In this document: positions 2,756 to 63,229 of the stretch, one piece after another
Layout: each line of letters begins with the position of its first letter
Position numbering within the stretch: position 1 is the first letter of the stretch
DNA from: Rhodocyclales bacterium
GTDB taxonomy: Bacteria; Pseudomonadota; Gammaproteobacteria; Burkholderiales; Rhodocyclaceae
NCBI GenBank assembly: GCA_016235765.1
Contig: JACRIZ010000008.1
Location: 1,838-65,837, forward strand
Direction of reading: 5' to 3'
Length of the DNA: 64,000 nt
Translations under genes and position numbers: made by a program
Notes under the pieces: generated by a model
What the model was told of the DNA's origin: nothing
Database searches by the model: none
The model's input: the letters and a program-made list of their open reading frames with translations, nothing else

Positions 2756-3664
2756 ATGGCTGTCGCCATCATGCTGACCGACCAGCCCCGCTCCTCCACC
2801 CCAATGCTCGCCGCCTCCCGGGAACCAGTCCCGACTTCGCCCGTGACCATCGTCGCCGGCATGCCGAGCCTGCCCACCTGGGCACGCCTGCCCATCAACC
2901 GCTGCAACCTGCCCGCAGTCATCCTTGGCGGCCTCACCTTCCAGCGCCATCCGACGCCGCTGGCGCTCGATGGCGTCGCCGAATTCCACGCCGACCTGTT
3001 CGAGATGCTCGACCGCTCCGAGGACCGCGCCGAGCGGGCGCGCCTGTTCCGCGACTACACGGCCGCGCACTTCTGCCTGGACCACCTGGAGGAAGCCGGC
3101 TTCGACGACCACACGAAGAAGCGCGCCAAGGCCAACTGGCTGCGCGTGCTGCGCGGCTGGAGCTTCGACGCCGACGGCCGCGAAGGTGCGGTGCTCAAGG
3201 GCTGGGTCGAGTCGCGCTTCGGCCTGCTGCCGCGCTTCCACGGCGAACCGCTGCGCGACTTCGTCTCGGCGCCCTACCTGCGCTACCTGGAAATGCGCTC
3301 GGCCGGCCTCTACGGCACCAACGCGCTGGAGGCCCAACTCGACCTGCTCTACGCCTACAGTCAATACGAATTCGCCAGGCTTGGCGTACCACCGCGGCTG
3401 ACTTTGTACCGCGGCATCAACCGCATCGCCGAACACGAGGTGCTCGCCGACCAGGGCGACCGGCAGGTGGTGCTGCTCAACAACGTCGTATCCTTCACCA
3501 CATCGCGCGAGCGGGCCGGGGAATTCGGCGACTACATCGTCGAGGCCCAGGTGCCGACCGCCAAGGTATTCTTCCATTGCGGCCTGCTGCCGGACCAACT
3601 GAAGGGCGAGGACGAACACCTGGTGATCGGCGGCGTCTACGAAGTGGCGCTGCGCACGTTATGA
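2756..3664 (+). CDS. draT: NAD+-dinitrogen-reductase ADP-ribosyltransferase DraT
   Basis: Strong resemblance to DraT as I recall it: REGAVLKGWVESRFGLLPRFH, LDLLYAYSQYEF, TLYRGIN, VVLLNNVVSFTTSRERAGEFGD, LKGEDEHLVIGGVYEV. The start is uncertain: ATG 2756 is chosen, the track ORF starts at 2663, and ATG 2771 is also possible. Confidence 0.85.
   Translation: MAVAIMLTDQPRSSTPMLAASREPVPTSPVTIVAGMPSLPTWARLPINRCNLPAVILGGLTFQRHPTPLALDGVAEFHADLFEMLDRSEDRAERARLFRDYTAAHFCLDHLEEAGFDDHTKKRAKANWLRVLRGWSFDADGREGAVLKGWVESRFGLLPRFHGEPLRDFVSAPYLRYLEMRSAGLYGTNALEAQLDLLYAYSQYEFARLGVPPRLTLYRGINRIAEHEVLADQGDRQVVLLNNVVSFTTSRERAGEFGDYIVEAQVPTAKVFFHCGLLPDQLKGEDEHLVIGGVYEVALRTL
3383..3405 (+). repeat. 23-nt motif copy a (21/23 to GGCGTGCCACCACGGCTGACTTT)
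   Basis: GGCGTACCACCGCGGCTGACTTT inside draT, read as GVPPRLTL. Confidence 0.8.
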
Positions 3665-3693
3665 TCCGTCCATCGACCCATTAGGAGCCGACC

Positions 3694-4611
3694 TTGTTCA
3701 AGGCTTTGTTCGGCGGCAAGCAGTCCAGCGAGGCACCGGAAGAAGTTCTGGAGGTGCCGGCCACGCTCATGCGCAAACCGCGGCCGGAGGAACTCAGGCA
3801 GGTCGTCGAGTATTTCCCGATCGGCAAGAAGATCCGCTACAGCCCGGAATACAAGAAGGAAGTCATCCTCGACACGCTGATCGTCGCCTACTGCGTCGAT
3901 GGCGAATTCATCTACTCGTGGGATGCCATCGAGGTCGACGCTGAGGGCGCGCCGACCGCCTTCCTGGTCGGCCCCAAGGCGCAGCGCATCGAGGTCGCCC
4001 GGGTCGCCGAGTTCCAGTTGCTGGTGCCCGACACCTCGGACCAGGAAGCCACCCTCGACTACCCGCGCCGGGCCATGATCGGCCGCGGCCGCCAGTTCCA
4101 CAAGGGCAACACCATCGCACTGATCTCCAATGCCGGCGTGCTTGGCGTGTCGACACTCGAGACCGAAGTCGACAAGCGCTTCGTCCTCAAGGACGGCCCC
4201 TACGCCCACTCGGCCATGGTGCTGCTGACACCGCAACTCGAGACCATCACGGTCTCCGACCAGCGCGGCAGCCATCGCGCCCGGATCGACGTGCCGGTGA
4301 CCATGACCATCCAGGAGCGACTGCGCGGCCCCGGCGTGATCGTGGACATCTCCGACGCCGCCATGCGCATCCGCGTCCGCGAGGGCCACACGATGCCGCC
4401 CATGGGCCGCGGCGACGACGTCACGCTCGACATCGACTTCGGCGGCGGCGACGAGGAACGCCTGTTCCGGATCAAGGCCGCGGTCATCCGCCGCTCGCCG
4501 GAATCCTGCGTCGTCCGCATCGTCGCGCATTTCAAGGACCGCCGCTTCGTACCGCTGGGCCCGCTCGACCTGCTGGAACTCAAGGCCGGGTTGCTCAATT
4601 ACGGCAAGTAA
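3694..4611 (+). CDS. PilZ-domain protein (C-terminal PilZ, unknown N-terminal domain)
   Basis: TTG start 6 nt after AGGAG (3683-3687), 30 nt downstream of the draT stop. The C-terminus has PilZ-like motifs: RGSHR (RxxxR), then DISDAAMRIRV (DxSxxG with G replaced by A). A beta-barrel-like segment follows. Confidence 0.7.
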   Translation: MFKALFGGKQSSEAPEEVLEVPATLMRKPRPEELRQVVEYFPIGKKIRYSPEYKKEVILDTLIVAYCVDGEFIYSWDAIEVDAEGAPTAFLVGPKAQRIEVARVAEFQLLVPDTSDQEATLDYPRRAMIGRGRQFHKGNTIALISNAGVLGVSTLETEVDKRFVLKDGPYAHSAMVLLTPQLETITVSDQRGSHRARIDVPVTMTIQERLRGPGVIVDISDAAMRIRVREGHTMPPMGRGDDVTLDIDFGGGDEERLFRIKAAVIRRSPESCVVRIVAHFKDRRFVPLGPLDLLELKAGLLNYGK

Positions 4612-4650
4612 GGCGGCAGGTCAGCGCCCGCCGCCTGCCACGCCAGAATC

Positions 4651-6335: not shown

Positions 6336-6502
6336 TGTGACTCTCCCCTTTTTCCGGTGGAACGCTGTACGTGCCAATTGCACCGGCATAATCTTATGAC
6401 AAAATACCCATTGCTGGGTACTGGTCATTGCGCGAACGTTTGCGTCCTCCGGGTATGATGCGTCTTGTTGGGTGGCGTATCGCCTCCCGCGAGAGGCATG
6501 CC

Positions 6503-7032: not shown

Positions 7033-7033
7033 G

Positions 7034-13554: not shown

Positions 13555-13650
13555 GATGCCCCCAAAAAGTAGTACGACATGAGTGCAGCGGAAAATACCA
13601 GCGAATGAAATATGGCTATGCCAGTTGCCAAATGACGACACCCCGGGATC

Positions 13651-13666
13651 TGTCGCAAACACGACA
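13651..13666. promoter_or_regulatory. NifA upstream activator sequence (TGT-N10-ACA)
   Basis: TGTCGCAAACACGACA. Near-identical to the UAS copies upstream of nifV (TGTCGCAAACCCGACA) and rnf (TGTAGCAAACGCGACA) in this window. Confidence 0.65.
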
Positions 13667-13705
13667 TCGCCACGCATACCCCACGCTCCGATGCGGCTTT
13701 CAGCC

Positions 13706-13721
13706 CGGCCCGGTTCTTGCC
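13706..13721 (+). promoter_or_regulatory. sigma54 (-24/-12) promoter candidate for the SIR2-like/hemerythrin operon
   Basis: CGGCCC-GGTTC-TTGCC has GG and GC at the canonical 12-nt register. Predicted +1 is about 13732, leaving a 20-nt leader with AGGAGA before ATG 13752. Confidence 0.55.
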
Positions 13722-13751
13722 TGTAGTCATTCAGACTTACAGGAGACAACC

Positions 13752-14603
13752 ATGATTAGCTCCAAATTCCGAACAGAGATGCTGGCCGGCCTCAAGGACG
13801 GCAGCGTGGTGCCCTACCTCGGTCCCGGCGTTCTGGCCGACGTCCGCCACGCCGAAACGGGCGCGGCGATGCCCATCACCAGCGACGAACTGATCATCGC
13901 CATGAACGGCGGCAAGCCGATGTCGCCCAAGCTCATGTACGAGTTCCCGCGTGCGGCGATGAACATCGAACTGAAGCGAGGTCGCTCGGCCGTCACCAAA
14001 TTCCTCGACGCCACCTACAACGCGCCTTGGACCCGCAGCGCCGTGCATGACTGGCTGAAGGCCATCCGGCCCGCCTACGTGATCGACATCAACCGCGACA
14101 CGCAGTTGCTCGATTCCTACGCCGACGTGCCGCACACCCTGGTGCTCGGCTGCGCCCGCATCGGCGGCACCGACTTCCGCTTCAAGCTCTTCGCCTGGGA
14201 CGGCATGCACTACAGCGCCATCGCCCCCGGCCAGGCCGCCCTGGGCCTGCCGCTGCTGTTCAAGCCGATGGGTGCGCCCAAACCTGAATCGACCTACATC
14301 GCCTCCGACGCCGACTACGTCGACTACATCACCGAACTGATGGGCGGCTTCGCCGTGCCGGCCTACGTCAAACAGTTGCGGAGCGACAAGCGCTACCTCT
14401 TCCTCGGCATGCGCTTCAACCGCGACAGCGAGCGCATGGTGATGTCCGACATCATCTACAGCGCCGCCGCCGGCCCGGCCGGCTGGGCGCTGATCGAGAG
14501 TCCGACCGCCAAGGAGCAGCGCTTCCTGGCCAAGATGGGCATCGTGATCGTCGAAGGCAGCGTCGCCGAACTGATGGGCGCGGAGGAGGCCGTGACATGC
14601 TGA
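13752..14603 (+). CDS. SIR2-like (SIR2_2-type) domain protein
   Basis: ATG at 13752 after AGGAGA. Motif order recalls the SIR2_2 family: GSVVPYLGPGV (N-terminal Gly-rich loop), YVIDINRDTQLLDSY (compare TTNYD..LE), LLFKPMGAP....YIASDADYVDYI (compare KLHGS...DY) and KRYLFLGMRFNRDSERMVMSDI (compare lFlGySl.D). The assignment is from memory of family motifs, not a search. Confidence 0.55.
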   Translation: MISSKFRTEMLAGLKDGSVVPYLGPGVLADVRHAETGAAMPITSDELIIAMNGGKPMSPKLMYEFPRAAMNIELKRGRSAVTKFLDATYNAPWTRSAVHDWLKAIRPAYVIDINRDTQLLDSYADVPHTLVLGCARIGGTDFRFKLFAWDGMHYSAIAPGQAALGLPLLFKPMGAPKPESTYIASDADYVDYITELMGGFAVPAYVKQLRSDKRYLFLGMRFNRDSERMVMSDIIYSAAAGPAGWALIESPTAKEQRFLAKMGIVIVEGSVAELMGAEEAVTC

Positions 14604-14986: not shown

Positions 14987-15009
14987 AAAGTCAGTCGTGG
15001 TGGCACGCC
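14987..15009 (-). repeat. 23-nt motif copy i (22/23)
   Basis: Reverse complement is GGCGTGCCACCACGACTGACTTT. Fills most of the 30-nt hemerythrin/draG convergent spacer. Confidence 0.85.
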
Positions 15010-18597: not shown

Positions 18598-20126
18598 CAC
18601 GCCACCCGCTTCGTTTCTGCGGCAATGGGCGCGTTCAGCAGGCCTGCCGCCAGCATTTCGTGCCATACCGCCGTCACCGCTTCCTCGACCGGCTCCATGG
18701 CGTGCTCGCCGTTCGGCCGGATGCCTGCCGCTTCCAGCTCGCCCCAGGGCTCGTAGCCGATCTTGGAACACAACACGGCTTCGCAGCCCTCCAGCGCCTT
18801 GATGGTCTTGGCCAGCACCGATTCGCCGTCGCCGCAGGTGTCGCCGCCGTCGCAGTAGAGGTCGGTCTTGCGGTGGCCGATCAGCTTGGCGCCGGCAGCC
18901 GTCGCTTCATAGACCAGGAATTCGCGGGCATGGCCGAAGTGCTCGGCGACCATGCCGTTCTTCGCGGCAACCGCCATGAGCACGGGGCGACCAGAGTCAG
19001 TCGTCGTAGTACGCCTGTGTATCGTCACCACTGCCACGCCGGCTGGCTGCGGGGCATGAGCCTTGGCCTTCTTGGCCTCGTTCTCCGCCGCGATCTGCTC
19101 GCGCAGCGCCTTGCGCTTGGCCATGGCATCAGCCAGGAAGGCGTCGTCCATCTCCATTGCCTCGACCTTGTCCATGGTGAACTCGGCGCCGCGATCCTCG
19201 CCCAGCAGGCCGACCGCGTCGGCGCGGCACTGGCGGCAGTGGCGCATCATGTTCATGTCGCCTTCGCAGGCGTCCTGCAAATTCTTCAGTTCGGCCGGGC
19301 TGGGGCTGCGCTGGCCCATGATGCCGTAGAAGGTGCCGTGCTCGGCCTCGGCGATCAGCGGCATGACGTTGTGCAGGAAGGCGCCCTTGGCCTTGACGAC
19401 TTTCGACACCTCCTTGAGGTGCTCGTCGTTGACGCCGGGAATCATCACCGAATTGACCTTGACCAGGATGCCGCGCGCCACCAGCATCTCCAGGCCCTTC
19501 TGCTGCTGCTCGATGAGGATGCGCGCCGCCTCGATGCCGCGGATGCGCTCGCCCTGCCAGAAGATCCACGGATAGATCTTGGCGCCGACCTCGGCGTCCA
19601 CGCAGTTGATGGTGATGGTGACGTGGTCGATGTTGTGCTTGGCCAGTTCCTCGACGCTGTCGGGCAGCGCCAAGCCGTTGGTCGACACGCAGAGCTTGAT
19701 GTCCGGCGCCTTGATCGCCAGTTCGCGGAAGGTGGCGAAGGTGCGCTCGGGGTTGGCGAGGGGATCGCCGGGACCGGCGATGCCGAGCACCGACATCTGC
19801 GGAATCGCTGCCGCGACGGCCAGCGTCTTCTTCACCGCCTGGTCGGGCGTCAGCAGTTCCGACACCACGCCCGGCCGCGACTCGTTGGCGCAGTCGTACT
19901 TGCGGTTGCAGTAATGGCACTGGATGTTGCAGGCCGGCGCCACCGCGGCGTGCATGCGCGCGAAGTGGTGGTGCGCCTGCTCGGAATAGCAGGGATGGTC
20001 TTCCACCTTGCGGCGGATTTCTTCCGACAGGCCGGACAGTTGTCCGGCCGTCGAACCGCAGCTACCGGCGCTGCAACCGCCCTGTGGGGTCAGGGGTGCT
20101 TTCGAGGCAATCACGGGGAGGTCCAT
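18597..20126 (-). CDS. nifB: FeMo-cofactor biosynthesis radical-SAM protein NifB (with C-terminal NifX-like domain)
   Basis: HPCYSEQAHHHFARMHAAVAPACNIQCHYCNRKYDCANESRPGV. C-terminal NifX/NafY-like domain (MAVAAKNGMVAEHFGHAREFLVYE). SD GGAG precedes the ATG at 20126. Confidence 0.95.
   Translation of the reverse strand: MDLPVIASKAPLTPQGGCSAGSCGSTAGQLSGLSEEIRRKVEDHPCYSEQAHHHFARMHAAVAPACNIQCHYCNRKYDCANESRPGVVSELLTPDQAVKKTLAVAAAIPQMSVLGIAGPGDPLANPERTFATFRELAIKAPDIKLCVSTNGLALPDSVEELAKHNIDHVTITINCVDAEVGAKIYPWIFWQGERIRGIEAARILIEQQQKGLEMLVARGILVKVNSVMIPGVNDEHLKEVSKVVKAKGAFLHNVMPLIAEAEHGTFYGIMGQRSPSPAELKNLQDACEGDMNMMRHCRQCRADAVGLLGEDRGAEFTMDKVEAMEMDDAFLADAMAKRKALREQIAAENEAKKAKAHAPQPAGVAVVTIHRRTTTTDSGRPVLMAVAAKNGMVAEHFGHAREFLVYEATAAGAKLIGHRKTDLYCDGGDTCGDGESVLAKTIKALEGCEAVLCSKIGYEPWGELEAAGIRPNGEHAMEPVEEAVTAVWHEMLAAGLLNAPIAAETKRVA
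18993..19015 (-). repeat. 23-nt motif copy k (18/23)
   Basis: Reverse complement is GGCGTACTACGACGACTGACTCT, in the nifB inter-domain linker. Read as RRTTTTDS. Confidence 0.65.
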
Positions 20127-25115: not shown

Positions 25116-25169
25116 TCTGGCATAGAATGGGCGGCGCCGATACGGCACCGCCCAAACGGGAGACCCGCG

Positions 25170-25517
25170 ATGAACTACAAAGGCAGTTGTCACTGTGGCG
25201 CAATTAACTTCGAGGTCGAAGGCGACTTGCACGAGGTCGCGGACTGCAATTGTTCCATTTGTTCGCGACTGGGCACTCTGCTTTGGTTCGTGCCCCGCGA
25301 CAAGCTGCGCGTGCTCACGCCCCAGGCCAGCATGGCCACCTACACCTTCGGCACCGCCACCATCACGCGCTACTTCTGCCCCAAGTGCGGCGTGCACGCC
25401 TTCGGCGAAGGCAACGAACCGAAGGGCAACCCCATGGCGGCCATCAACGTCCGCTGCCTGGAAGGTGTCGACTTCTCCGCGCTGTCGGTCAAGCACTACG
25501 ACGGCAAGTCGCTCTAG
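25170..25517 (+). CDS. GFA/CENP-V family zinc protein
   Basis: GSCHCGAINFEV...CNCSIC...YFCPKCG is the characteristic Cys pattern. Confidence 0.8.
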   Translation: MNYKGSCHCGAINFEVEGDLHEVADCNCSICSRLGTLLWFVPRDKLRVLTPQASMATYTFGTATITRYFCPKCGVHAFGEGNEPKGNPMAAINVRCLEGVDFSALSVKHYDGKSL

Positions 25518-25521: not shown

Positions 25522-25544
25522 GGCGTACCGCCACGGCTGACTTT
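25522..25544 (+). repeat. 23-nt motif copy b (21/23)
   Basis: GGCGTACCGCCACGGCTGACTTT, intergenic, 10 nt before the DUF2867-like ATG. Confidence 0.85.
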
Positions 25545-25554: not shown

Positions 25555-26088
25555 ATGAAATCCCCGGCGATCACCTCCATCCTCGCCCCGCCCGCCACCC
25601 GCATCAGCGGGGAGATTCCGGGCTCCGACTTCCACGACTGCTACGCGATGCCCCTGGCGCATGGCAGCCGCTCGGCGCTCGAGATATTCCTCCTGACGGT
25701 GGCGCGCTCGCCGCGCTGGGTGGAGTCGCTGATGGCGCTGCGCAATCGCATCGTGGGACTGTTCGGCTTGAAGAACCTCGGCCACCTGGGTTCGCTGCCG
25801 CCGCTCAAGGAAGCCTCGGCGTACCGGATCGGCGACCGCGTGGGCATCTTCACGCTGTTGTCGGCGACCGACGACGAGGTGATCCTCGGCGACTCCGACA
25901 AGCACCTCGACGTAAAGGTGTCGCTGTGCAAGGTAATGCGCGACGAACGCGAGGCCGTTGCGGTGACGACCGTGGTGCACATCCACAATCTTCTCGGACA
26001 CATCTACATGCTGTTAGTCGCGCCCATGCACCGCATCATCGCGCCGGCGGTGATGGCGCGCGGCGCAGAGGCGTGCCACCACGGCTGA
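25555..26088 (+). CDS. DUF2867-like hypothetical protein
   Basis: The ATG at 25555 starts the coding-looking part of track ORF 25195..26088 (SDFHDCYAMPL...). The family assignment is from memory and tentative. Its stop TGA lies inside a 23-nt motif copy. Confidence 0.5.
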   Translation: MKSPAITSILAPPATRISGEIPGSDFHDCYAMPLAHGSRSALEIFLLTVARSPRWVESLMALRNRIVGLFGLKNLGHLGSLPPLKEASAYRIGDRVGIFTLLSATDDEVILGDSDKHLDVKVSLCKVMRDEREAVAVTTVVHIHNLLGHIYMLLVAPMHRIIAPAVMARGAEACHHG

Positions 26089-26092
26089 CTTT
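26070..26092 (+). repeat. 23-nt motif copy c (23/23)
   Basis: GGCGTGCCACCACGGCTGACTTT. Its TGA is the DUF2867-like stop. The motif ends 3 nt before the lysE ATG. Confidence 0.9.
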
Positions 26093-28518: not shown

Positions 28519-31726
<3,208 letters not shown>

Positions 31727-36674: not shown

Positions 36675-37349
36675 ATGAGCAACTATCAGGTCTTCAAGGA
36701 AGGACTCTGGAGCCAGAACGTCGTCTTCGCCCAGATGCTGGCGCTCTGCCCGACGTTGGCCGTCACCACCAGCGGCACCAACGGCCTGGGCATGGGCCTG
36801 GCCTCCACTGTCGTGCTGGTCGCCTCCAACGTGCTCGTGGCGTTGATCCGCGACTTCGTCAGCCCGCAAGTACGCATTCCGGTCTTCGTGGTGCTGATCG
36901 CGACGCTGGTAACGCTGGTCGACATGAGCCTCAACGCCTGGTTCCACGACCTCTACAAGGTGCTCGGCCTGTTCATCGCGCTGATCGTGGTGAACTGCGC
37001 CATCCTCGGCCGCGCCGAAGCCTTTGCCTCCAAGTCGCCGGTGCTGGCCTCGGCGCTCGACGGCTTGGGCATGGGTCTCGGTTTCACGCTGGCGCTGACC
37101 GTCATCGGCCTGGTCCGCGAACTGCTCGGCGCCGGCACGCTGTTCGCTCAGGCCAGCCTGCTGCTCGGCCCGGGGTTCGCCTTCCTGGAAACCACCGTCA
37201 TCCCGAACTACGGCGGCGTGCTGCTGATGATCCTGCCGCCCGGCGGCTTCCTGGTGCTCGGTTTCCTGCTCGCCGCCAAGCGCATCACCGATGCGCGCAT
37301 GGCACGGCGTGCCGCCACGACTGACTTTTCCGCCGCCCAAGGAGCCTGA
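36675..37349 (+). CDS. rnfE: Rnf complex subunit E
   Basis: GLWSQNVVFAQMLALCPTLAVT... The C-terminal tail carries a 23-nt motif copy (RRAATTDF). Confidence 0.95.
   Translation: MSNYQVFKEGLWSQNVVFAQMLALCPTLAVTTSGTNGLGMGLASTVVLVASNVLVALIRDFVSPQVRIPVFVVLIATLVTLVDMSLNAWFHDLYKVLGLFIALIVVNCAILGRAEAFASKSPVLASALDGLGMGLGFTLALTVIGLVRELLGAGTLFAQASLLLGPGFAFLETTVIPNYGGVLLMILPPGGFLVLGFLLAAKRITDARMARRAATTDFSAAQGA
37306..37328 (+). repeat. 23-nt motif copy d (21/23)
   Basis: GGCGTGCCGCCACGACTGACTTT in the rnfE C-terminal tail. Read as RRAATTDF. Confidence 0.85.
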
Positions 37350-37630: not shown

Positions 37631-37659
37631 CCATAATGCGCTTGCGGTCTTGCGGCGTG

Positions 37660-37689
37660 AAGGGCGGCTCCGGCCGCCCTTCGCTTTTC
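37660..37689 (+). terminator. rho-independent terminator after rnfH
   Basis: AAGGGCGGC-TCCG-GCCGCCCTT followed by CGCTTTTCC. Confidence 0.75.
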
Positions 37690-37699
37690 CAGCACAGGG

Positions 37700-37715
37700 A
37701 TTGATGCCGATCAAT
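37700..37715. promoter_or_regulatory. FNR/CRP-family binding site (perfect TTGAT-N4-ATCAA)
   Basis: ATTGATGCCGATCAAT sits in an AT-rich intergenic stretch. A -10-like CAATAT lies about 30 nt downstream, which gives class II geometry. Confidence 0.65.
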
Positions 37716-37798
37716 GTTACTTTAGTAATATGGCGCGACAATATGTTTGGCATGATGGCATCATAATAAGCCGCAATGCGGCCCGACAAAGAGAATAT

Positions 37799-40804: not shown

Positions 40805-41259
40805 CCGCCACCATCCACTTCGAACCCATCGAGTGGTCGGACAGCATGACGACCGGCGTTGCCCAGATCGACAACCAGCACCGCTTCCTGGTCGACACCC
40901 TACGCCAGGCCAACAACAGGTTACTGGATGACCACGAAGGTGCACTGCTCGGCGAGATTGCCAAGGACTTGCTCACCTACGCGATCATGCATTTCGAGAC
41001 CGAAGAAAACTTGATGAAGCGCTACGGCTACGCGGAAGCCTTTCCCGAACTTGCCAGGGCCCATATCGCCCAGCACCGGGACTTCTCGCATCAGGTGGTG
41101 GCAGTCTGCGACAACCTGCGTGAAGGCCGCCAGGTGTCCCGCATCGAGGTGCTGAAGTTCCTCAACGAGTGGCTGCGCCACCACGTGCTCGGCGTCGACC
41201 AGAAGCTGGGTGCGTTCGTGCGCGACGCCGCGCGGCAGCGGTCGGATCAGGCCGGCTGA
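40801..41259 (+). CDS. bacteriohemerythrin
   Basis: IEWSDSMTTGVAQIDNQHRFLV, MHFETEENLM, HIAQHRDF, WLRHHVLGVD. ATGA overlap with the GGDEF-EAL gene. Confidence 0.85.
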   Translation: MTATIHFEPIEWSDSMTTGVAQIDNQHRFLVDTLRQANNRLLDDHEGALLGEIAKDLLTYAIMHFETEENLMKRYGYAEAFPELARAHIAQHRDFSHQVVAVCDNLREGRQVSRIEVLKFLNEWLRHHVLGVDQKLGAFVRDAARQRSDQAG

Positions 41260-42086
41260 AACAGGCCCGCGATCCAGGCCTTCTGCACGGCGGCGCGCCG
41301 CCCGCCGGCAAGATGTTCCCGCACGCGCTCGCGGATTTCGGCCAGCGGCACCTGCGTTTCCCGTTCGATCGCGTCGCAGAGCACGAGGTGAAACCCGAGT
41401 TCCGATTCAACGACGGCCGAAAGTTCGCCCGCGTCCAGGGCAAACGCGACGGCCTCGACTGCGGCGTAGAGCTTGCCGCGCGGCACCTTGCCGAGCATGC
41501 CGCCGTTCATCGCCGTCGGGCACTCGGAGTGCTTGAGCGCCTGCTCGCTGAAGCGGCCGATCTCCTTTGCCAGCCGCGCACGGATCGCTTCGATCTTTGC
41601 CTGCGCAGCATCGCGCGTGCTGCCGGCCATGTCGTCGTTGATCGTGATCAGGATATGCCGCAGCGTACGGGTCTCAGGCTTCTTGAAGCGATCCAGGTGC
41701 TGTAGGTAGAAGATCTCGACCTCGGTATCGCTGACCGGCAGGGCGCTCGCCGCGACCAGTTCCAGCACGGCCTCGACCTTCAGATCGCGCTCGATGGCGG
41801 CACGCAACTCCGCGATGCCGAGGCCGGTGCGGGCCAGGTCGGCTTCGAATTCCGGCTCGTCGGGATAGCGGTCGCGGATGTCCTTGACGCAGGCTTCGAC
41901 CGACGCTTCGGGCAGCACCACCAGCGCCGCGTTGGCGCTGGCGAGGATGCGCTGCTCGATTTCCTGCTGGCGCGCGGCCACTGCATCGACGCGCTTGCGT
42001 TCCGGCGCTTCGAGCGCATCGGGCGCCTTGCTGTACAGCTCGCGCGCCAGCTTGAGGCGCAGGTAGGGACTGGGAGAGTCAGTCAT
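41247..42086 (-). CDS. nifM: PpiC-type peptidyl-prolyl isomerase NifM
   Basis: C-terminal parvulin domain (HILITIND..., SECPTAMNGGMLGKVPRGKLY, SELGFHLVLC). Sits next to nifZ. Confidence 0.8.
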   Translation of the reverse strand: MTDSPSPYLRLKLARELYSKAPDALEAPERKRVDAVAARQQEIEQRILASANAALVVLPEASVEACVKDIRDRYPDEPEFEADLARTGLGIAELRAAIERDLKVEAVLELVAASALPVSDTEVEIFYLQHLDRFKKPETRTLRHILITINDDMAGSTRDAAQAKIEAIRARLAKEIGRFSEQALKHSECPTAMNGGMLGKVPRGKLYAAVEAVAFALDAGELSAVVESELGFHLVLCDAIERETQVPLAEIRERVREHLAGGRRAAVQKAWIAGLFQPA

Positions 42087-42097
42087 CGCGGCACGCC
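42075..42097 (-). repeat. 23-nt motif copy m (18/23)
   Basis: Reverse complement is GGCGTGCCGCGATGACTGACTCT. Contains both the nifZ stop (TGA) and the nifM start (ATG). Confidence 0.65.
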
Positions 42098-46112: not shown

Positions 46113-48442
46113 ACAACGAAACGCCTGACCTCTTCGATGAAGCCCCGCCGCCAGGTGGCGTCCCCCCACGGCTGACTTTCGAGGACCCGAACGCGCTGCC
46201 GCTCGACGGCTATGCCGAACAGGCCTATCTCTCCTACGCGATGAGCGTGGTGCGCTCGCGCGCGCTGCCGCAGGTCGAGGATGGCTTGAAGCCGGTGCAG
46301 CGTCGCATCCTGTTCGCGATGAACGAGATGCGCCTGCCGGCGACCGCCAAGCACGTCAAGTCGGCGCGCGTGGTCGGCGACGTGATCGGCAAGTACCACC
46401 CGCACGGCGACAGCAGCGTGTACGACGCCATGGTGCGCGTGGCGCAGGACTTTTCCTTGCGCTATCCGCTGGTCGACGGCCAGGGCAACTTCGGCTCGCG
46501 CGACGGCGATGGCGCGGCGGCGATGCGCTACACCGAATGCCGGCTGACGCCGATCGCCGAATTGCTGCTCGCGGAACTGGATCGCGGCACGGTCGATTTC
46601 GTCGCCAACTACGACGGCACCATGCGCGAGCCGCAACTGATGCCGGCCCGCCTGCCCTTCGTGCTGCTCAACGGCGCCTCGGGCATCGCCGTCGGCATGG
46701 CCACGGAAATTCCGCCGCACAACCTGCGCGAAGTCGCGGAGGCGGTGAAGCTGCTGATCAGGAAGCCGGAAGCGGCGCTCGAGGAGGTGCTGCCGCTGCT
46801 GCCGGGCCCCGACTTCCCGGGCGGCGGCCAGTTGATCTCTTCGCCCGAGGACATCCGCGACGCCTACGCGAGCGGACGCGGCAGCTTGCGCATGCGCGCG
46901 CGCTGGCGCATCGAGGATCTGGCCCGCGGCCAGTGGCGCGTGATTGTCGAGGAACTGCCGCACGGCGTGTCGACGGCGAACGTGCTGTCGGAAATCGAGG
47001 CCGTCACCAACCCGCAACCGCGCGCCGGCAAGAAGGACGTGTCGCAGGAGCAGAAAAACCTCAAGCAGGTGATGCTCGGCGTGCTCGATTCGGTGCGCGA
47101 CGAATCGAGCGACAAGGCACCCGTGCGCATCGTGCTGGAGCCGCGCACGTCGAAGATCTCGCAGCAGGAGTTCATGGCCGTGCTGCTGGCGCACACCAGC
47201 CTCGAAGCCAGCGTGCCGATCAACATGACCATGATCGGCCGCGATGGCCGGCCGAAGCAGAAACCGCTGCTGAGCGCGCTGCACGAGTGGATCGAGTTCC
47301 GCCACGTCACCGTCGAGCGGCGCAGCCGCCATCGCCTGAATGAAGTCGAGCGCCGCCTGCACATCCTCGAAGGCCGCCTGTCGGTGTTCCTGCAGATCGA
47401 GAAGGTGATCCGCTGCATCCGCGAATCGGACGAGCCCAAGGCCGACCTGATGGCGAAGTTCAAGCTCACCGAGATCCAGGCCGAGGACATCCTCGAAATC
47501 CGCCTGCGCCAGTTGGCGCGACTGGAAGGCATCAAGATCGAGAAGGAGCGCGGCGAACTGCGCGAGGAAGAAGCGGGCCTGAGGAAGATCCTCGGCGACC
47601 GCAAGGAACTCACCAGGCTGGTCGTCAGGGAAATCACCGAGGACGCGAAGAAGTACGGCGACGAACGCCGCACGCTGATCGAGGCCGAGGCCGCGACGGC
47701 GCCGGCCGAAGTGGCCATCCCCGACGAGCCGGTGACGGTGATCGTCTCGCAGAACGGCTGGGTGCGCGCGCGCCAGGGCCACGGCATCGACCCGACCACG
47801 ATTTCCTACAAGGCAGGCGACTTCCCCTTCCTGGTCGCCGAGTCGCGCACGATCTGGCCGCTGGTCATGGTCGACACGGCGGGCCGCGCCTACAGCGTGC
47901 GCGTGGCCGACCTGCCGGGCGGGCGTGGCGACGGCGTGCCGCTCACCACGCTGATCGAATTCCAGGACGGCGCGAAACTCGCCCAGGCGCTCACCGACAC
48001 GCCGGAAGCCCAGTACGTCTTCGCCGGCACCGGCGGCTACGGCTTCATCGCCGGCATCGTCGATCTCGTCTCGCGCAACCGCGCCGGCAAGGCCTTCATG
48101 GCGCTCGACAAGGGCGAGAGGCCGGTCAAGCCGGCGAAAGTCAGTGGTGGCGGTACGCTGGCAGCGATCTCGCAAAGCGGCCGCCTGCTGGTCTTCCCGC
48201 TCGACGAATTGAAGGTCATGGCCAAGGGCCGCGGCCTGATCATCCAGGACATCGGCCCCAAGGACGAACTGGTCGGCGTCGCGGTCGGCGACAAGTCCTT
48301 CACCGTGAGCGGCGCAGGCCGTGGCGGCAAGGCGAGCGAATGGCAGGTGTCGGGCAGGGAGTTGACCGGCTATCGCGGCAGCCGGGCGAAGAAGGGCCAG
48401 CCGATACCGGCCAGGCTCAAGCCGGCGGGAATCTCCGGCTAG
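46109..48442 (+). CDS. parC: DNA topoisomerase IV subunit A
   Basis: [48 protein letters not shown] overlap with parE. Contains two 23-nt motif copies. The 785-aa minus ORF is a shadow. Confidence 0.9.
46157..46179 (+). repeat. 23-nt motif copy e (21/23)
   Basis: GGCGTCCCCCCACGGCTGACTTT in the variable parC N-terminus. Read as GVPPRLTF. Confidence 0.85.
48137..48159 (-). repeat. 23-nt motif copy f (18/23)
   Basis: Reverse complement is AGCGTACCGCCACCACTGACTTT in the parC C-terminal domain. Read antisense as KVSGGGT. Confidence 0.65.
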
Positions 48443-51736: not shown

Positions 51737-52588
51737 TCAGGGGCTGACCTCCACGGTCAGCCCTTTTTGTTTCAGCAGCACCGCCACGCTTTCCAGCCAG
51801 GCGACCGGCGCGGCGCTCAATCTCGGCGCCTCGGGCTGGGCCGATGGCCGGGCCAGTCCATAGAGATGCACGCCACCGATGCTGTCGCGGCAGCGTCCGA
51901 GAAAATCCGCGAGCACCGCCAGTTCGGCATCGGTCGGCAACTGTCCGTCGAGCGCGAACAGGCAGGTCTGCACCCAGGTCGGGCACAACGCCGCGCAAAG
52001 CTTCAGCCGCCGTTCCACGCTGGCCATCTTCACGCGGCTGCCGTTGATGCGCGCCACGGCGGCATCGGTGGCGGCATCGACCTTGAACCAGACCTCGCCC
52101 CCGGCCGCGCCCAGCCGTTCGATGCCGTCGCGCACGCTGCGCCGGTCCAGCAGGCTGCCGTTGGTGATCAGGCGCAGCTTGACGCCGGGCAGGAGGTTCC
52201 GGCGCGCCAGCGCCTGCGCGGCAATCTCGACCGCCTGCGGGAACTCGGCCGCACTGGTCGGCTCGCCGTTGCCCGAGAACGCAATGTCGATCAGGCGGCG
52301 CTGCCCCTCGGGCACCCGCTGCGCCAGGAAATCGCCGGTCACGATGGCGTCGAGCATCCCGTCCAGTTCGCACCGCAGTTGGGCGAGATCAATGGGCGGC
52401 GGTCCGCCGCGCGTCAGGTTGGGCACCTGGCAGTACATGCAGTGCCAATTGCAGGCGTTGTTCGGATTCAGGTTGATGCCGATCGAAACGCCGCCGGCGC
52501 GCCGCGACACCACCGGATAGACGTAGGTCATCCCCGCGCTGTCGCGCGAATGGTCCTGGACGGTGAGGCGGCCGGAAACGGGAGGCAT
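51737..52588 (-). CDS. radical SAM protein (function uncertain; neighbour of queD)
   Basis: CNWHCMYC (CX3CX2C) near the N-terminus. Start is uncertain (GTG 52597, ATG 52588 or ATG 52531). Confidence 0.65.
   Translation of the reverse strand: MPPVSGRLTVQDHSRDSAGMTYVYPVVSRRAGGVSIGINLNPNNACNWHCMYCQVPNLTRGGPPPIDLAQLRCELDGMLDAIVTGDFLAQRVPEGQRRLIDIAFSGNGEPTSAAEFPQAVEIAAQALARRNLLPGVKLRLITNGSLLDRRSVRDGIERLGAAGGEVWFKVDAATDAAVARINGSRVKMASVERRLKLCAALCPTWVQTCLFALDGQLPTDAELAVLADFLGRCRDSIGGVHLYGLARPSAQPEAPRLSAAPVAWLESVAVLLKQKGLTVEVSP
51741..51773 (+). terminator. rho-independent terminator after the XRE gene
   Basis: GGGCTGACC-TCCAC-GGTCAGCCC-TTTTTGTTT. It overlaps the 3' end of the convergent radical-SAM gene. 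Confidence 0.7.
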
Positions 52589-52635
52589 GGCGGGCACGGC
52601 TATAATGCGTTCCGTTCCAGCTTACCATCGATCCC

Positions 52636-53988: not shown

Positions 53989-54011
53989 AAAGTCAGCCGT
54001 CGCGGAATGAA
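53989..54011 (-). repeat. 23-nt motif copy g (17/23; the 3' 15 nt are nearly perfect)
   Basis: Reverse complement is TTCATTCCGCGACGGCTGACTTT, starting 6 nt after the BI-1-family stop. Confidence 0.55.
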
Positions 54012-55427: not shown

Positions 55428-56558
55428 ATGCCGACGATCATGAAAAAACAACCCCTTACCCTCCTCGGCGGCCTGACGGCCGAGCAATTCCTCGCCGAAT
55501 ACTGGCAGAAGAAACCCCTGCTGGTCCGGGGCGCGCTGCCCGGCTTCACCGGTCTGCTGGCGCGCGACGAGATGCTGGACCTTGCCTGCCGCGAAGATGT
55601 CGAGTCGCGCTTCGTCTCCCAGGCGGGCGGCTGGACCATCGCCCACGGACCCTTCTCGCGCGCCGCCCTGCGCCGCAAGGCCAAGCCCTGGACGGCACTG
55701 GTGCAGGGGCTGAACATGCTGCTGCCGCAGGCCGACGAGATGATGCGCCGCTTCAGCTTCATCCCCTACGCCCGCCTCGACGACCTGATGGTCAGCTACG
55801 CCACCGACGGCGGCGGCGTCGGCCCGCATTTCGACAGCTACGACGTCTTCCTGCTGCAAGGCATGGGCAAGCGGCGCTGGCGCATCGGCAACCAGATGGA
55901 CCAGACGCTGATCGAAGGCCTGCCGATCCGCATCCTCAAGGATTTCCGGCCGGTGCACGACTGGGTGCTGGAACCCGGCGACCTGCTCTACCTGCCGCCG
56001 GAATGGGCGCACGACGGCATTGCGGTCGGCGAGTGCATGACCTATTCGGTGGGCTTCCGCGCCGCGCCGACGCAGGATCTGGCCGAGCAGTTCCTGACGT
56101 TCCTGCAGGACCGCGTGAACCTGCCCGACCGCTATCGCGACCCGGACCTCGAGCTGCAGAAGCATCCGGCCAGCATCGGTGCGCCGATGATCGACCAGGT
56201 CGCCGACATGCTCAATCGCGTCCGCTGGAACCGCGACACCGTGCGCGACTTCCTCGGCAGCTACCTCACCGAACCGAAGTCGCACGTCTTCTTCGATCCG
56301 CCCGCCAAGCCGCTCGGCGAGGGGCGCTTCGCCGCCGCCGCGGCCCGTCGCGGCATCCGCCTGGATGCGCGCAGCCAGTTGCTGTTCGCCGACGACAGCT
56401 TCTACATCAACGGCGAATCCGTCGTGGTGGCACGCCGTGACCGCGCCCTGATCCGCCAACTGGCCGACCAGCGCGCGCTGCCGGCGCAGAAGCTCGGCGA
56501 CGTGGCGGTCGCCCTGCTCCACGACTGGTATCGCTGCGGCTTCATTCACCTGCCGTGA
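55428..56558 (+). CDS. JmjC/cupin ribosomal protein hydroxylase (YcfD/RoxA-like)
   Basis: [53 protein letters not shown] 55440 is an alternative start. Confidence 0.75.
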
Positions 56559-60258: not shown

Positions 60259-60305
60259 GGTTCTGCCCTTGGGTCGGGGGCGCTGCGTAAAAGTCCGATT
60301 CTAAC

Positions 60306-61229: not shown

Positions 61230-61329
61230 TTGGGGATTGACATACAATCGATTCGAATTTCGATTATGAACTTGTTTTACTGCATTTTGCCTCAATTCTA
61301 GCCGCCAGCAGCCACAAGAGCCCAGCCCC

Positions 61330-62262
61330 ATGCGTTCCCCCAGCCAGGACAGCCCGCAGAGCCCGATGGACAGCGTCGTCGCTGCCGCCGGCCATGTCAT
61401 ACTGGGCAAGGACAGGCAATTGCGGCTGGCGCTGGCTTGTCTGCTGGCGCGCGGCCATCTGCTGATCGAGGACCTGCCCGGCGTCGGCAAGACCACGCTG
61501 GCGCACGTACTGGCGCAACTCCTGGGCCTGCACTTCCAGCGCATCCAGTTCACCAGCGACATGCTGCCCGCCGACATCCTCGGCGTCTCGATCTTCGACC
61601 GCGACAGCGGTGCCTTCAACTTCCATCCCGGCCCGATTTTCTCGCAGGTGGTACTCGCCGACGAGATCAACCGCGCCACGCCGAAGACGCAAAGCGCGCT
61701 GCTCGAAGCCATGGAGGAACGCCAGGTGACCGCCGAAGGCCAGACGCGGCCGCTGCCGTCGCCCTTCTTTGTCATCGCCACCCAGAACCCGGCGCACCAG
61801 ATCGGCACCTTCCCGCTGCCGGAATCGCAGCTCGACCGCTTCCTGATGAAGATCGAACTCGGCTATCCCGACCGTGCCGCCGAACGCGAACTGCTGGCCG
61901 GCGCCGACCGCCGAGAGGTGCTGGCCGGCATGGCGCCCTGCCTGTCGCCGACCGAACTGCAGGGCTATCAGGAATCGGTGCGCCGCGTGCACGTCTCCGA
62001 CGCCCTGATCGACTACGTGCAGGCGCTGGTCGCGCGCACGCGCGAGTCGGCCGAGTGGCAGGCCGGCCTGTCGCCGCGAGCCGCGCTGGCGCTGCTGGCC
62101 TCGGCGCGCGCCTGGGCCTGGCTGGCCGGCCGCGACCACGTGCTGCCCGAGGACATCCAGGCCGTGCTGCCCGGCGTCGCCGGCCACCGCCTGCGCCCGG
62201 CCGGCGAAACACCCGCCGCCGGCAGCATCGAGCGACTGATCGCCGCCGTCCCGATTCCGTAA
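61330..62262 (+). CDS. MoxR-family AAA+ ATPase
   Basis: IEDLPGVGKTTLA (Walker A), LADEINRATPKTQSALLEAMEERQVT. Confidence 0.9.
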   Translation: MRSPSQDSPQSPMDSVVAAAGHVILGKDRQLRLALACLLARGHLLIEDLPGVGKTTLAHVLAQLLGLHFQRIQFTSDMLPADILGVSIFDRDSGAFNFHPGPIFSQVVLADEINRATPKTQSALLEAMEERQVTAEGQTRPLPSPFFVIATQNPAHQIGTFPLPESQLDRFLMKIELGYPDRAAERELLAGADRREVLAGMAPCLSPTELQGYQESVRRVHVSDALIDYVQALVARTRESAEWQAGLSPRAALALLASARAWAWLAGRDHVLPEDIQAVLPGVAGHRLRPAGETPAAGSIERLIAAVPIP

Positions 62263-62266
62263 GCCC

Positions 62267-63229
62267 ATGAACCCGGCCGCCGCACTCCGGGAGCAATTCA
62301 TCCGCTGGGCCCTGCGCGTCAAGCCGCCGGAAGCATCGCCGGTCGTCCTCGGCCAGCGCCGCGTCTATGTGCTGCCGACGCGCGCCGGCCTCGGCTTCGC
62401 CGCAGCGCTCCTGACCATGCTGGTCGGCAGCATCAACTACAACCTCAGCCTGGGCTACGTGCTGACCTTCCTGCTCGCCGGGCTGGGCGTCGTCGCCATC
62501 CTGCACACCTTCCGCAATCTGGTGCGCCTGAAAGTCAGCCGCGGCAGGACGCCTGCCGTCTTCGCCGGCGAGCACGCCAGCTTCCATGTCGTGTTGGCGA
62601 GCGACATCGAACGCCATGCGATCCGGTTGTGGTTGCCCGAAGGGGAAGGCACCACGGTCGACCTCGCTGCCGGCGACAGCGCCGATGCCTGCCTGCGCCT
62701 GCCGACGACGCGGCGCGGCTGGCTCGCCCTGCCGCGTTTCGGCCTGGAGACCACCTGGCCGCTCGGCCTGATCCGCGCCTGGGCCTACTGCGCACCCGAC
62801 CTGCGCTGCCTCGTCTATCCGCAGCCGGCCGCCAAGGCGCCACCGCTGCCCTGGGGCGCCGGCGAGCAGGGCGGCCGACGCACCGGCGGGCGGGGCAACG
62901 ACGACTTCGCCGGCCTGCGCGGCCACCAGCTTGCCGATCCGCCGCGCCACGTCGCCTGGAAGACCGCTGCGCGCCACGGCGCGGATGCGCCGCTGCTGAC
63001 CAAGCAGTTCGACGGCACCGCGACAGCGCGCATCTGGCTCGACTGGCAGGACGCGCCGGGCGAGGACGACGAAGCGCGCCTGTCCATCCTCACCCGCTGG
63101 GCACTCGACGCGCACGCCGCCGGCCTCGACTGGGGCCTGGGCTTGCCGGCGCGCAGCATTGCGCCGGCGTCGGGCGAGGCACACCTGCAAACGGCGCTGA
63201 CCGCGCTGGCGCTCCATGGCCAGGCCTAG
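62267..63229 (+). CDS. DUF58-family protein
   Basis: Position after MoxR, two N-terminal TM helices, DDFAGLRGH. Family assigned from context and memory. Confidence 0.65.
   Translation: MNPAAALREQFIRWALRVKPPEASPVVLGQRRVYVLPTRAGLGFAAALLTMLVGSINYNLSLGYVLTFLLAGLGVVAILHTFRNLVRLKVSRGRTPAVFAGEHASFHVVLASDIERHAIRLWLPEGEGTTVDLAAGDSADACLRLPTTRRGWLALPRFGLETTWPLGLIRAWAYCAPDLRCLVYPQPAAKAPPLPWGAGEQGGRRTGGRGNDDFAGLRGHQLADPPRHVAWKTAARHGADAPLLTKQFDGTATARIWLDWQDAPGEDDEARLSILTRWALDAHAAGLDWGLGLPARSIAPASGEAHLQTALTALALHGQA
62531..62553 (-). repeat. 23-nt motif copy h (19/23)
   Basis: Reverse complement is GGCGTCCTGCCGCGGCTGACTTT in the DUF58 gene. Read antisense as KVSRGRT. Confidence 0.7.

Follow-up and report, generated by a model that had tools for sequence, protein, structure and literature searches.

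We found that a dispersed 23-base word, GGCGTRCCRCCACGGCTGACTTT, recurs throughout a 64-kb window (the whole stretch of DNA analyzed here) from a Rhodocyclales metagenome-assembled genome (MAG), the genome of a nitrogen-fixing Rhodocyclaceae bacterium. The word is massively over-represented and is conserved as DNA, not as peptide. In addition, all of its sites in a lineage have changed spelling together, so that there are three dialects (A, B and C). The closest known behavior is that of the DUS and USS uptake sequences, which also have dialects. We favor the reading that the word is a lineage-specific, genome-wide recognition sequence, spread most likely by preferential uptake of self-DNA and recombination (probability roughly 0.45), and we regard a role in uptake as putative.

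The word occurs in the window far more often than expected by chance. A scan at ≤6 mismatches (at least 17/23 identity) found 13 copies (Table 1), compared to 0.53 expected from a third-order Markov model, the kind of comparison that had been proposed in a preliminary description of this DNA. At ≤3 mismatches there were seven copies, and none in any of 100 dinucleotide-preserving shuffles. The density is ~1 copy per 5 kb. The preliminary description had counted 12 copies with at least 17/23 identity. The word it recognized is real and its number was slightly low; its one perfect copy stands, but five copies, not four, have 21-22/23 identity (14987, 3383, 25522, 37306 and 46157). The complete distribution is one copy each at 23/23 and 22/23, four at 21/23, one each at 20/23 and 19/23, four at 18/23 and one at 17/23. 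Copies are on both strands, as claimed (five on + and eight on -). At ≤7 mismatches, ~3.3 matches are expected in the window by chance, and the 16/23 matches at 5151 and 53303 are at chance level. Therefore, the match at 53303, previously listed as a copy in the BI-1 N-terminus, was dropped. Pfam annotation confirmed the host genes (DRAT, NifB, NifA, RnfE [Rnf-Nqr], ParC, Bax1-I and JmjC_2), and no transposase or integrase gene was present in the window, in line with the earlier description. The gene called DUF58 (62240-63229) has no Pfam match, but it is in the usual position of DUF58, between MoxR (AAA_3) and TgpA_N.

Table 1. Copies of the word in the 64-kb window, with the state of orthologous positions in related loci (L numbers).
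Copy	Position	Strand	Identity	Context	Orthologous positions
draT	3383..3405	+	21/23	within DRAT domain, translated GVPPRLTL	
draG-downstream	14987..15009	-	22/23	intergenic, 8 nt past draG (ADP_ribosyl_GH) stop codon; oriented like draG	no copy in orthologous spacer of L078
nifB	18993..19015	-	18/23	radical-SAM/NifX-like linker; sense strand, second frame	
intergenic	25522..25544	+	21/23	4 nt past stop codon of ORF 25116-25517	
perfect	26070..26092	+	23/23	ends 3 nt upstream of ATG of LysE-family gene	
nifA	28726..28748	-	20/23	AAA+ lid/HTH_8 domain linker, translated GVSPRLTM	
rnfE	37306..37328	+	21/23	C-terminal tail, translated RRAATTDF	copy in L114 at 4823
nifZ/PPIase junction	42075..42097	-	18/23	nifZ 3' end / PPIase 5' end	copies in L114 at 5986 and L115 at 5967
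ParC N-terminal	46157..46179	+	21/23	hypervariable N-terminus, translated GVPPRLTF	copies in L094, L114 and L115; dialect B in Sulfuricystis (L109) and L110; dialect C in L116
ParC C-terminal	48137..48159	-	18/23	antisense, C-terminal domain, translated KVSGGGT	
decayed	53989..54011	-	17/23	5 nt past Bax1-I gene stop codon	22/23 copy in L007
decayed	56414..56436	-	18/23	antisense in JmjC_2/ROXA-like gene	21/23 copy in L007
DUF58-position	62531..62553	-	19/23	antisense, gene between MoxR (AAA_3) and TgpA_N	

We determined the context and reading frame of 214 copies from the window and 108 related loci. Intergenic regions or gene boundaries contain 120 of these (56%). The other 94 (44%) are inside open reading frames, and all five open frames are used (sense, 25 and 24 copies; antisense, 23, 11 and 11 copies). 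The sixth frame contains a TGA within the word itself, which serves as the stop codon for up to ten open reading frames, five of which are annotated gene ends. That is, the word is read in different frames, as had been reported, and with more than half of the copies outside open reading frames or at boundaries, it is the nucleotide string that is conserved and not a peptide. Consistent with this, alignments of ParC and DraT indicated that the peptide segments are not conserved among distant orthologues that lack the word. Two other proposed checks gave no bias, either relative to transcription (49 sense and 45 antisense) or in strand relative to local GC skew (64 to 76, p = 0.35).

The spelling of the word differs between lineages. 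The dialect A word recurs in about 14 related Rhodocyclaceae MAGs, often at orthologous positions, with exact matches in at least 108 eight-kb blocks. Dialect B, GCCGTSCCRCCAGCGCCGACTTT, is found in Sulfuricystis thermophila (about nine copies in 22 kb) and others, including four copies in L110. Dialect C, GCCGTCYCGCCAGCGCTGACTTT, is found in one further lineage (four copies in 13 kb of L116). Two independent sites in ParC, one sense and one antisense, always have the same dialect within a lineage: among 120 orthologues, 16 pairs were A/A, 30 were B/B, and none was A/B or B/A. The word has also been lost from some lineages; it was not found in 22 kb scanned from each of three relatives, including Denitratisoma. 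The preliminary description had likened the word to DNA-uptake signals or another protein-recognition word. Sharing of a lineage-specific dialect by independent sites of one genome strengthens the likeness to DUS and USS, which is one of behavior.

Copies of the word are scarce in foreign DNA, an observation in favor of uptake. Dialect A had no match in IMG/VR, the full-length word had no match in PLSDB plasmids or INPHARED phages, and dialect B occurs only once in most of the viral contigs that have it. There was no copy in the phage-like 7 kb of L114 or in the IS-rich 8 kb of L110. Two other observations count against uptake. Four or five copies are present in 8-15 kb of some real phage regions, which encode RecT/RecE, a methyltransferase or a primase. 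In addition, two accessory-looking loci (L010 and L095) have runs of small genes of unrelated functions with a copy in every spacer, such that runs of copies in the same orientation follow successive small genes. Slow mutational build-up would not easily produce such runs in short-lived, accessory-looking DNA.

The word has sharp limits and lacks a significant fold. Its extended form is Y-GGCGTRCCRCCACGGCTGACTTT-Y (23-25 bp). In a logo of 219 copies, the flanks are unrelated, with only weak preferences at positions -1, 0 and +24, in line with the earlier statement that sequences outside the word are not conserved. The information content is high, roughly 35-40 bits across two helical turns: a tolerant center separates two near-invariant blocks, GGCGT and CTGACTTT. 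We found no hairpin and no significant fold, supporting the earlier view that the word is not REP-like or hairpin-like.

These properties could also fit a different, and clearly less probable, explanation: that another sequence-specific protein of the chromosome binds the word, with each site under selection and the spelling co-evolving with the protein. Such a protein might be a nucleoid organizer, a recombination or repair cofactor, or one that reads a 'self' mark sparing resident DNA from a host nuclease. High information over two helical turns, the two blocks around a tolerant center and the dialects are all compatible with this, and multiple copies in several phage early regions would be expected if the word benefits any intracellular DNA. 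In addition, the reverse complement of dialect B variants contains GCTGGTGG, the E. coli Chi octamer. However, hundreds of sites, many of which alter protein sequence, would each need to be selectively advantageous, which is the classical objection behind the drive models of USS. The lack of strand polarity relative to GC skew indicates that the word is not Chi-like or KOPS-like, and we know of no nucleoid or segregation site that combines such length, copy number and intragenic distribution.

At sites with informative orthologues, the word takes the place of sequence of equal length. No insertion or deletion was present at the word in alignments of 120 ParC and 120 DraT orthologues, indicating substitutions rather than insertions, the distinction that the proposed alignments were meant to draw. 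At the ParC N-terminal site, GVPPRLTF aligns with AVPPAPTF in orthologues, and at the C-terminal site KVSGGGT aligns without a gap to KVGAGDT or KVGAGGT. In DraT, GVPPRLTLYRG corresponds to AAGDRLTLYRG, whose RLTLYRG part is a half-match that was already present. The same pattern of substitution occurs in related phage contigs. Orthologous copies persist across species at 75-90% nucleotide identity, inside otherwise hypervariable sequence.

Replacement where partial matches pre-existed is also what would be produced by a selfish element that spreads by overwriting sites instead of inserting into them. In such a scheme, a master copy (such as a short single-stranded DNA made by reverse transcription or in some other way) would pair with partly matching sites, and short-patch recombination would convert them. 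The word would spread without a change in length, and all copies would track changes in the master. We consider this improbable, although it would account for the concerted change of dialect and for good copies in phage and cassette-like accessory regions, which are unlikely to have gained them by slow accumulation. A non-systematic look at ~2 Mb of loci revealed no master locus, reverse transcriptase or retron-like gene beside the copies, and we know of no natural overwriting system of this kind. Furthermore, decayed copies persist at orthologous sites (53989 and 56414, compared to L007), so conversion, if any, is infrequent.

The alignments largely refute the idea of a miniature mobile insertion element, with the word as the entire element or as its end, comparable to cyanobacterial small dispersed repeats (SDRs), REP or Correia elements, or Rickettsia palindromic elements (RPEs). 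Sharp borders of a dispersed repeat, the same-orientation runs after successive small genes, and the position of the word at the 5' end of a structured ~100-nt repeat in two MAGs and one locus would suit such an element. Yet there was no gain of 23-24 nt at any site with informative orthologues, no hairpin, inverted terminal repeat or target duplication, and no transposase nearby. Nor could an inserted relic change spelling in parallel at independent orthologous sites. We therefore think that a mobile origin is very unlikely. SDRs and HIP1 are words of 8-27 nt that reach very high copy numbers and are found within genes and other repeats as well, but SDRs are palindromic and behave as insertions and HIP1 is an 8-nt palindrome, whereas the word is asymmetric and replaces sequence of equal length. 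RPEs are DNA repeats translated in different proteins at permissive regions, but each inserts 100-150 nt and so makes the host protein longer; the word brings no gain in length. REP/RAYT repeats and Ssn-related hairpin motifs (NTS/dRS3) number in the hundreds per genome and their spelling co-varies with a cognate protein (PMC11893778). They form hairpins and are essentially extragenic, in contrast to the word, with its lack of fold and 44% of copies in open reading frames. Finally, a conserved peptide, a codon-usage artefact or a chance cluster of GC-rich words is almost certainly the wrong reading: the variable positions of the logo (6, 9, 12 and 15) are the third codon positions of the GVPPRLTF frame, a periodicity that is partly an ascertainment effect because the genome-scan pattern permitted variation at those four positions only, but non-coding DNA and gene boundaries account for 56% of copies, and the use of five frames and the excess over the Markov model (13 versus 0.5) refute it.

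In the reading that we favor, a directional process acting on point substitutions would generate and maintain the word at hundreds of chromosomal sites, with replacement at sites already matching in part. This would most likely be natural transformation with a preference for self-DNA followed by homologous recombination, as in the molecular-drive models of Neisseriaceae DUS and Pasteurellaceae USS. The spelling would be set by a trans-acting receptor of drifting specificity, presumably part of the DNA-uptake machinery.

The word shares much with these known systems. DUS and USS have been described with dialects, intragenic copies in permissive segments, avoidance of frames containing stop codons, and depletion in acquired DNA. 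Like the word, the DUS of Neisseriaceae, which like Rhodocyclaceae are a betaproteobacterial family, are non-palindromic, hugely over-represented on both strands, present in spacers and at permissive segments within genes, derived by substitution, spelled in distinct but related ways in related lineages, and rare in foreign DNA. They differ in length (10-12 bp, compared to 23-25 bp) and density (~1 per kb, compared to ~1 per 5 kb), and the word has few inverted pairs in terminators and a patchy distribution in its family. The sequences are unrelated except that dialect B contains a short TGCCGTC stretch, perhaps by coincidence. The Pasteurellaceae USS (Hin and Apl types), which span about 29 bp in all, resemble the word in being extended asymmetric motifs whose strong core is flanked by weaker positions, and in having lineage-specific types, intragenic copies in poorly conserved protein segments, and avoidance of stop-codon frames. 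However, USS have a 9-bp core with AT-rich flanks, whereas the word is strongly specified at most of its 23 positions and is less dense. Overall, the word is about twice as long as DUS and USS (9-12 bp) and about five times sparser, which counts against uptake. So does the rarity of close inverted repeats (just 3-4 of 111 neighboring pairs of copies), given that about half of known uptake sequences are in terminators.

A literature search found no such element described for Rhodocyclaceae, in agreement with the preliminary description, and as late as October 2025 a preprint listed uptake sequences for Neisseriaceae and Pasteurellaceae only. Besides this word, dispersed words that arise by base changes and change spelling together across whole lineages are so far known only among the uptake signals of relatives of Neisseria and Haemophilus.

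We found that the 23-nt word GGCGTGCCACCACGGCTGACTTT is strongly over-represented in the window. A scan for exact matches and matches with mismatches found seven copies with three or fewer mismatches, and none in any of 100 dinucleotide-preserving shuffles. With up to six mismatches allowed, there were 13 copies in the 64 kb compared to 0.53 expected from a third-order Markov model. The observed density of the word is ~1 copy per 3-5 kb. The preliminary description had reported 12 copies matching at 17 or more of 23 positions; the copies are real and lie on both strands (five on + and eight on -), but their true number at this threshold is 13. Matches of 16/23 at 5151 and 53303 are at chance level. 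The same description held that the flanks are not conserved and that no transposase or integrase is nearby, and both statements hold: the sequence beyond the 23 nt is unrelated between copies, and none of the genes annotated in the 64-kb window is for a transposase, an integrase or competence. None of the copies overlaps a tRNA or an Rfam family. The host genes, as identified with Pfam, are those for DRAT, NifB, NifA, RnfE, ParC, Bax1-I, a JmjC_2 protein and a PPIase, and a LysE-family gene; the remaining annotation consists of ordinary nif-associated and housekeeping genes.

Several other features of the window were recorded. A protein with a SIR2_2 domain, which is common in anti-phage systems, is encoded at 13557-14603, between genes for an FG-GAP repeat protein and draG. 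A large GAF-PAS-GGDEF-EAL gene (37631-41249) lies between rnfH and the PPIase gene. It is missing from one syntenic close relative (L114) and present in another (L115), and has no copy of the word inside it in the window or in L115. ARAGORN called a 97-nt tRNA-Pro(ggg) at 52385-52481 that was not reported by the Rfam tRNA model and that overlaps a radical-SAM ORF (51737-52621); this call is probably a false positive.

It is the DNA, and not an encoded peptide, that is conserved. Among 214 copies, 100 were intergenic, 20 straddled a gene end and 94 (44%) were inside ORFs, such that about half of the copies fall in the ~19% of sequence outside ORFs. The copies inside ORFs were read as GVPPRLTF (25) or RATTADF (24) in the sense frames, and in three antisense frames (23, 11 and 11). 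None was in the frame in which the word holds a TGA. In this sixth frame, up to 10 ORFs use the TGA as their stop codon, and five of these stops are annotated gene ends. That is, all five open frames and the spacers are used, as expected if the nucleotide string is what is kept, which is what had been proposed.

The orientation of the word is unbiased. Copies were often 0-20 nt from a stop codon, in the same (37) or the opposite (28) orientation. Tests for an orientation bias, suggested in the preliminary description, found none relative to transcription (49 sense and 45 antisense among the 94 copies inside ORFs) or local GC skew (64 vs 76 copies, p = 0.35). Because orientation follows neither, an RNA-level element and a polar word like Chi or KOPS are excluded. 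In addition, neither strand of the spelling found in the window (dialect A) or of a second, lineage-specific spelling (dialect B) folded better than shuffled controls (DNA z-scores of -1.4 to +1.0), consistent with the earlier view that the word is not REP- or terminator-like. REP-type and Ssn/NTS-type repeats are therefore excluded: unlike REP/RAYT and Ssn-related repeats, which are extragenic stable hairpins (PMC11893778 for Ssn/NTS), the word has no hairpin and is frequently inside ORFs.

Copies of the word arose by substitution and not by insertion, as determined by the alignment of orthologues that had been proposed beforehand. In 120 aligned ParC orthologues, the N-terminal GVPPRLTF is in a hypervariable, indel-rich stretch and aligns, with no change in length, to AVPPAPTF of more distant orthologues. 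At the ParC C-terminus, the antisense copy (KVSGGGT) aligns to KVGAGDT or KVGAGGT, again with length unchanged, and the difference from lineages lacking the motif is at most one codon. In DraT, the word is within the conserved DRAT domain, and there is no indel where GVPPRLTLYRG is aligned with sequences such as AAGDRLTLYRG and QLPPKLTLYRG; the word overlies the protein-conserved RLTLYRG with its 3' half, and only the variable upstream residues are rewritten. Related phage contigs with and without the word also differed by same-length substitutions. All of the informative sites (both ParC sites, DraT and the phage contigs) had the same length or 3-nt indels, and none had a gain of 23-24 nt, so a mobile insertion element is rejected. 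The word also differs from MITE, SDR, RPE and Correia elements, which add length and have terminal inverted repeats or target duplications; here the replacement is of the same length and there are no flanking repeats.

Insertions of another kind were seen in ParC. Three orthologues (P0087, P0100 and P0114) carry 27 extra residues (PSQADAPPVGGSEPGLRARGANKVGAG), inserted precisely at the C-terminal motif site between repeated KVGAG, and in a fourth (P0119) the N-terminal motif peptide is interrupted by an insertion. The motif sites may attract other insertions.

The word is found in relatives of the organism. The ParC of the window is 100% identical to a protein encoded on a 73-kb contig of a Rhodocyclales MAG, and the closest relatives with a name, by ParC, are Sulfurisoma, Sulfuritalea, Sulfuricystis and Denitratisoma. 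We scanned one genome per species (GTDB) with the pattern GGCGTRCCRCCRCGRCTGACTTT, in which variation was allowed only at positions 6, 9, 12 and 15. At least 108 eight-kb blocks matched, and among the matches listed the sources were ~14 Rhodocyclaceae or unclassified betaproteobacterial MAGs. One matching contig labelled Steroidobacter sp. (L012, JBDHQY010000377.1) is 99.8% identical to a contig (L093) of the betaproteobacterial MAG WAS_Bin_15 and is probably mis-binned, so Steroidobacter is not evidenced as a carrier. A logo of 219 copies revealed a sharply bounded element of 23-25 bp. Positions 1-5 (GGCGT) and 16-23 (CTGACTTT) are near-invariant and the centre is more tolerant, with variable positions at an apparent three-base periodicity that is partly a result of ascertainment because the scan pattern varied only at the four positions. 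There were weak preferences at -1 and 0 (G/T and C/T) and +24 (T/C), and nothing beyond.

Copies persist at orthologous positions across species that share 75-90% nucleotide identity. In the syntenic region of two close relatives (L114, 91%; L115, 85%), each copy has a counterpart in the window. Decay is uneven by lineage: the window copies at 53989 and 56414 have decayed and their counterparts in a third relative (L007) are good. Genomes that are far more distant also have the word at both ParC sites, but spelled differently. Dialect B, GCCGTSCCRCCAGCGCCGACTTT, is at both ParC sites and ~7 other places in 22 kb of Sulfuricystis thermophila (L109, AP019373.1), where it ranks first among the families of repeated 10-mers; four copies are in a second genome (L110). 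Dialect C, GCCGTCYCGCCAGCGCTGACTTT, is at both ParC sites and in recB and recC of another genome (L116), and has a spelling that lies between those of A and B. In the 120 ParC orthologues, the N- and C-terminal sites were A/A in 16, B/B in 30, neither in 51, and A/B or B/A in none. In three relatives, Denitratisoma oestradiolicum and two other genomes (L111 and L113), 22 kb of each showed no sign of the word; the ParC of L111 is closer to that of the window than is the ParC of Sulfuricystis. Judging from these alignments, parallel respelling of independent sites cannot be reconciled with neutral decay of old insertions. Because independent sites changed spelling in parallel, we infer that a trans-acting specificity, followed by all of the sites, would be needed.

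For the most part, mobile DNA appears poor in the word, but not everywhere. Dialect A had no exact match in 2.9 million IMG/VR contigs, and full-length dialect B had none in PLSDB plasmids or INPHARED phages (N-padded BLAST query), with only partial chance matches. Dialect B or C was found in at least 120 stretches of IMG/VR contigs. Most of the 77 contigs listed have a single copy, and matches past the first were rare (~1 per 190 kb); exact-pattern matches in host DNA occur about every 4-13 kb. There were no copies in a phage-like 7 kb of L114 or an IS-rich 8 kb of L110. Four clear phage loci from IMG/VR (L122, L148, L154 and L226) have 4-5 copies of dialect B in 8-15 kb; these are early or recombination regions encoding RecT/RecE-like proteins, exonuclease VIII, DNA methyltransferase, primase and PAPS reductase.

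Some accessory-looking regions have copies in regular arrays. In one IMG/VR contig (3300009945_000063; L137:560-4300), an apparently frameshifted integron integrase gene adjoins 4.7 tandem, near-identical 316-nt cassettes without ORFs. Each has its own attC (GCCTAAC...GTTAGGC) and one copy of dialect B in the cassette body, so the word also travels in integron cassettes. Two other loci (L010:700-3600 and L095:1600-4400) have runs of five copies in the same orientation, one in every spacer of a series of small genes whose functions are unrelated (PIN-domain, NYN-like and unknown). These copies are often 1-3 nt past a stop codon and their flanks are unrelated. We rejected integron attC sites as an explanation for these runs and for L137: in L137 the attC is separate from the word, and elsewhere the cores of an attC, R''(RYYYAAC)...R'(GTTRRRY), an imperfect palindrome at cassette ends, do not flank the word.

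The word is also part of a ~100-nt composite repeat in the Old_saline_rock_biofilm and AalW MAGs and in L079. Its first 20-23 nt are the word, followed by CCGAAGGGCGCAGGACGCCACGAAGTGGCGGTCCCGAGCAACGCGAGGGATGGGGCnnnGCCCCACACTTTT. The remaining 75 nt contain two hairpins with a few compensatory changes, the second of them terminator-like. This structured part was never found without the word among the loci examined, and a search of Rfam with the composite repeat gave no hit. Possible identities of the repeat are a small RNA or terminator module and a MITE with the word as its cargo or its target.

Positions of the composite repeat in the loci that carry it
Locus	Position	Strand
L008	3310-3410	+
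L008	5400-5492	-
L020	1340-1470	-
L020	6300-6425	
L023	2648-2750	
L036	4650-4760	
L049	3290-3400	-
L055	6361-6470	
L079	300-410	-
L102	7058-7160	

Taken together, the word is asymmetric, massively over-represented and orientation-neutral, is in genes only where the protein allows, and is built by substitution at partly matching sites. It is kept at orthologous sites, respelled by lineage, lost in some lineages and apparently rare in most foreign DNA. Among known sequences, this set of properties is shared only by the DNA-uptake sequences of the Neisseriaceae (DUS) and Pasteurellaceae (USS). Like these, the word is far more frequent than expected from composition (in the window, in S. thermophila and in the matching blocks), is in both orientations without polarity relative to local GC skew or transcription, has intragenic copies made by substitution in weakly constrained segments with the stop-codon frame avoided, and has lineage-specific dialects, with the two ParC sites never in disagreement. 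Since only DUS and USS are known to combine these properties, we consider molecular drive linked to uptake the likeliest mechanism, at a probability of roughly 0.45 by analogy with those systems.

The word behaves like an uptake sequence but departs from one in both length and density, two quantitative features that define the group. It is 23-25 bp and DUS and USS are 9-12 bp, and its density is about five times lower than their ~1 per kb. In addition, DUS and USS frequently form terminators as inverted pairs, and here only 3-4 of 111 neighbouring pairs were close inverted pairs. Because of these differences, and because copies are dense in some phage regions and in runs of small, accessory-looking genes (L010 and L095), two other explanations are kept alive. 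A DNA-binding protein unrelated to uptake, with sites that are individually selected, is a rather unlikely but serious alternative. Less likely still is templated "overwriting", in which sites with a partial match would be converted.

Other readings were rejected. The resemblance of GCGTGCC-A-CCA to a tRNA acceptor end is not accompanied by any overlap with a tRNA or Rfam family, and the conserved 3' half is left unexplained. The reverse complement of dialect A contains TGGCACG, as in a sigma-54 -24 element, but a -12 element is lacking and dialect B does not have the match. The copy at L109:1095 and other dialect B copies with A at position 9 have the reverse complement ...GCGCTGGTGGCAC..., containing GCTGGTGG, the E. 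coli Chi octamer; dialect A reads CGTGGTGG instead. There is no strand polarity, and the octamer is probably a coincidence. Unlike Chi and KOPS, which are 5-8 nt and co-oriented with replication, the word is 23 nt and its orientation is not linked to skew.

Uptake-linked drive may mean that the environmental sulfur-oxidising, nitrogen-fixing Rhodocyclaceae related to Sulfuricystis, Sulfuritalea and Sulfurisoma have DNA-uptake specificity sequences of a third family, either separate from DUS and USS or distant relatives of them, with an unusually long signal of 23-25 bp in at least three dialects. This fuller proposal is tentative and somewhat less probable than the mechanism itself. We found nothing relevant in the full-text literature on the word, the dialect B core or uptake sequences in Rhodocyclaceae, where the hits were chance matches to primers. 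According to a preprint from October 2025, uptake sequences are confined to two families, Neisseriaceae and Pasteurellaceae.

Sequence-specific self-recognition in DNA uptake is known only from these two families of host-associated bacteria, and its origin, receptors and rationale are debated. If the word is an uptake sequence, then natural transformation with self-recognition would be widespread in these Rhodocyclaceae and would have escaped notice until now, the phenomenon would extend to free-living bacteria relevant to wastewater and groundwater, and the longer signal would imply a different kind of receptor. Otherwise, the word would belong to some other system of genome-wide recognition that leaves the same evolutionary footprint. 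S. thermophila is a cultured and fully sequenced carrier that is open to direct tests. The word is also a ready marker for binning metagenomes and separating host from foreign DNA, and a natural system for the co-evolution of a recognition word and its reader.
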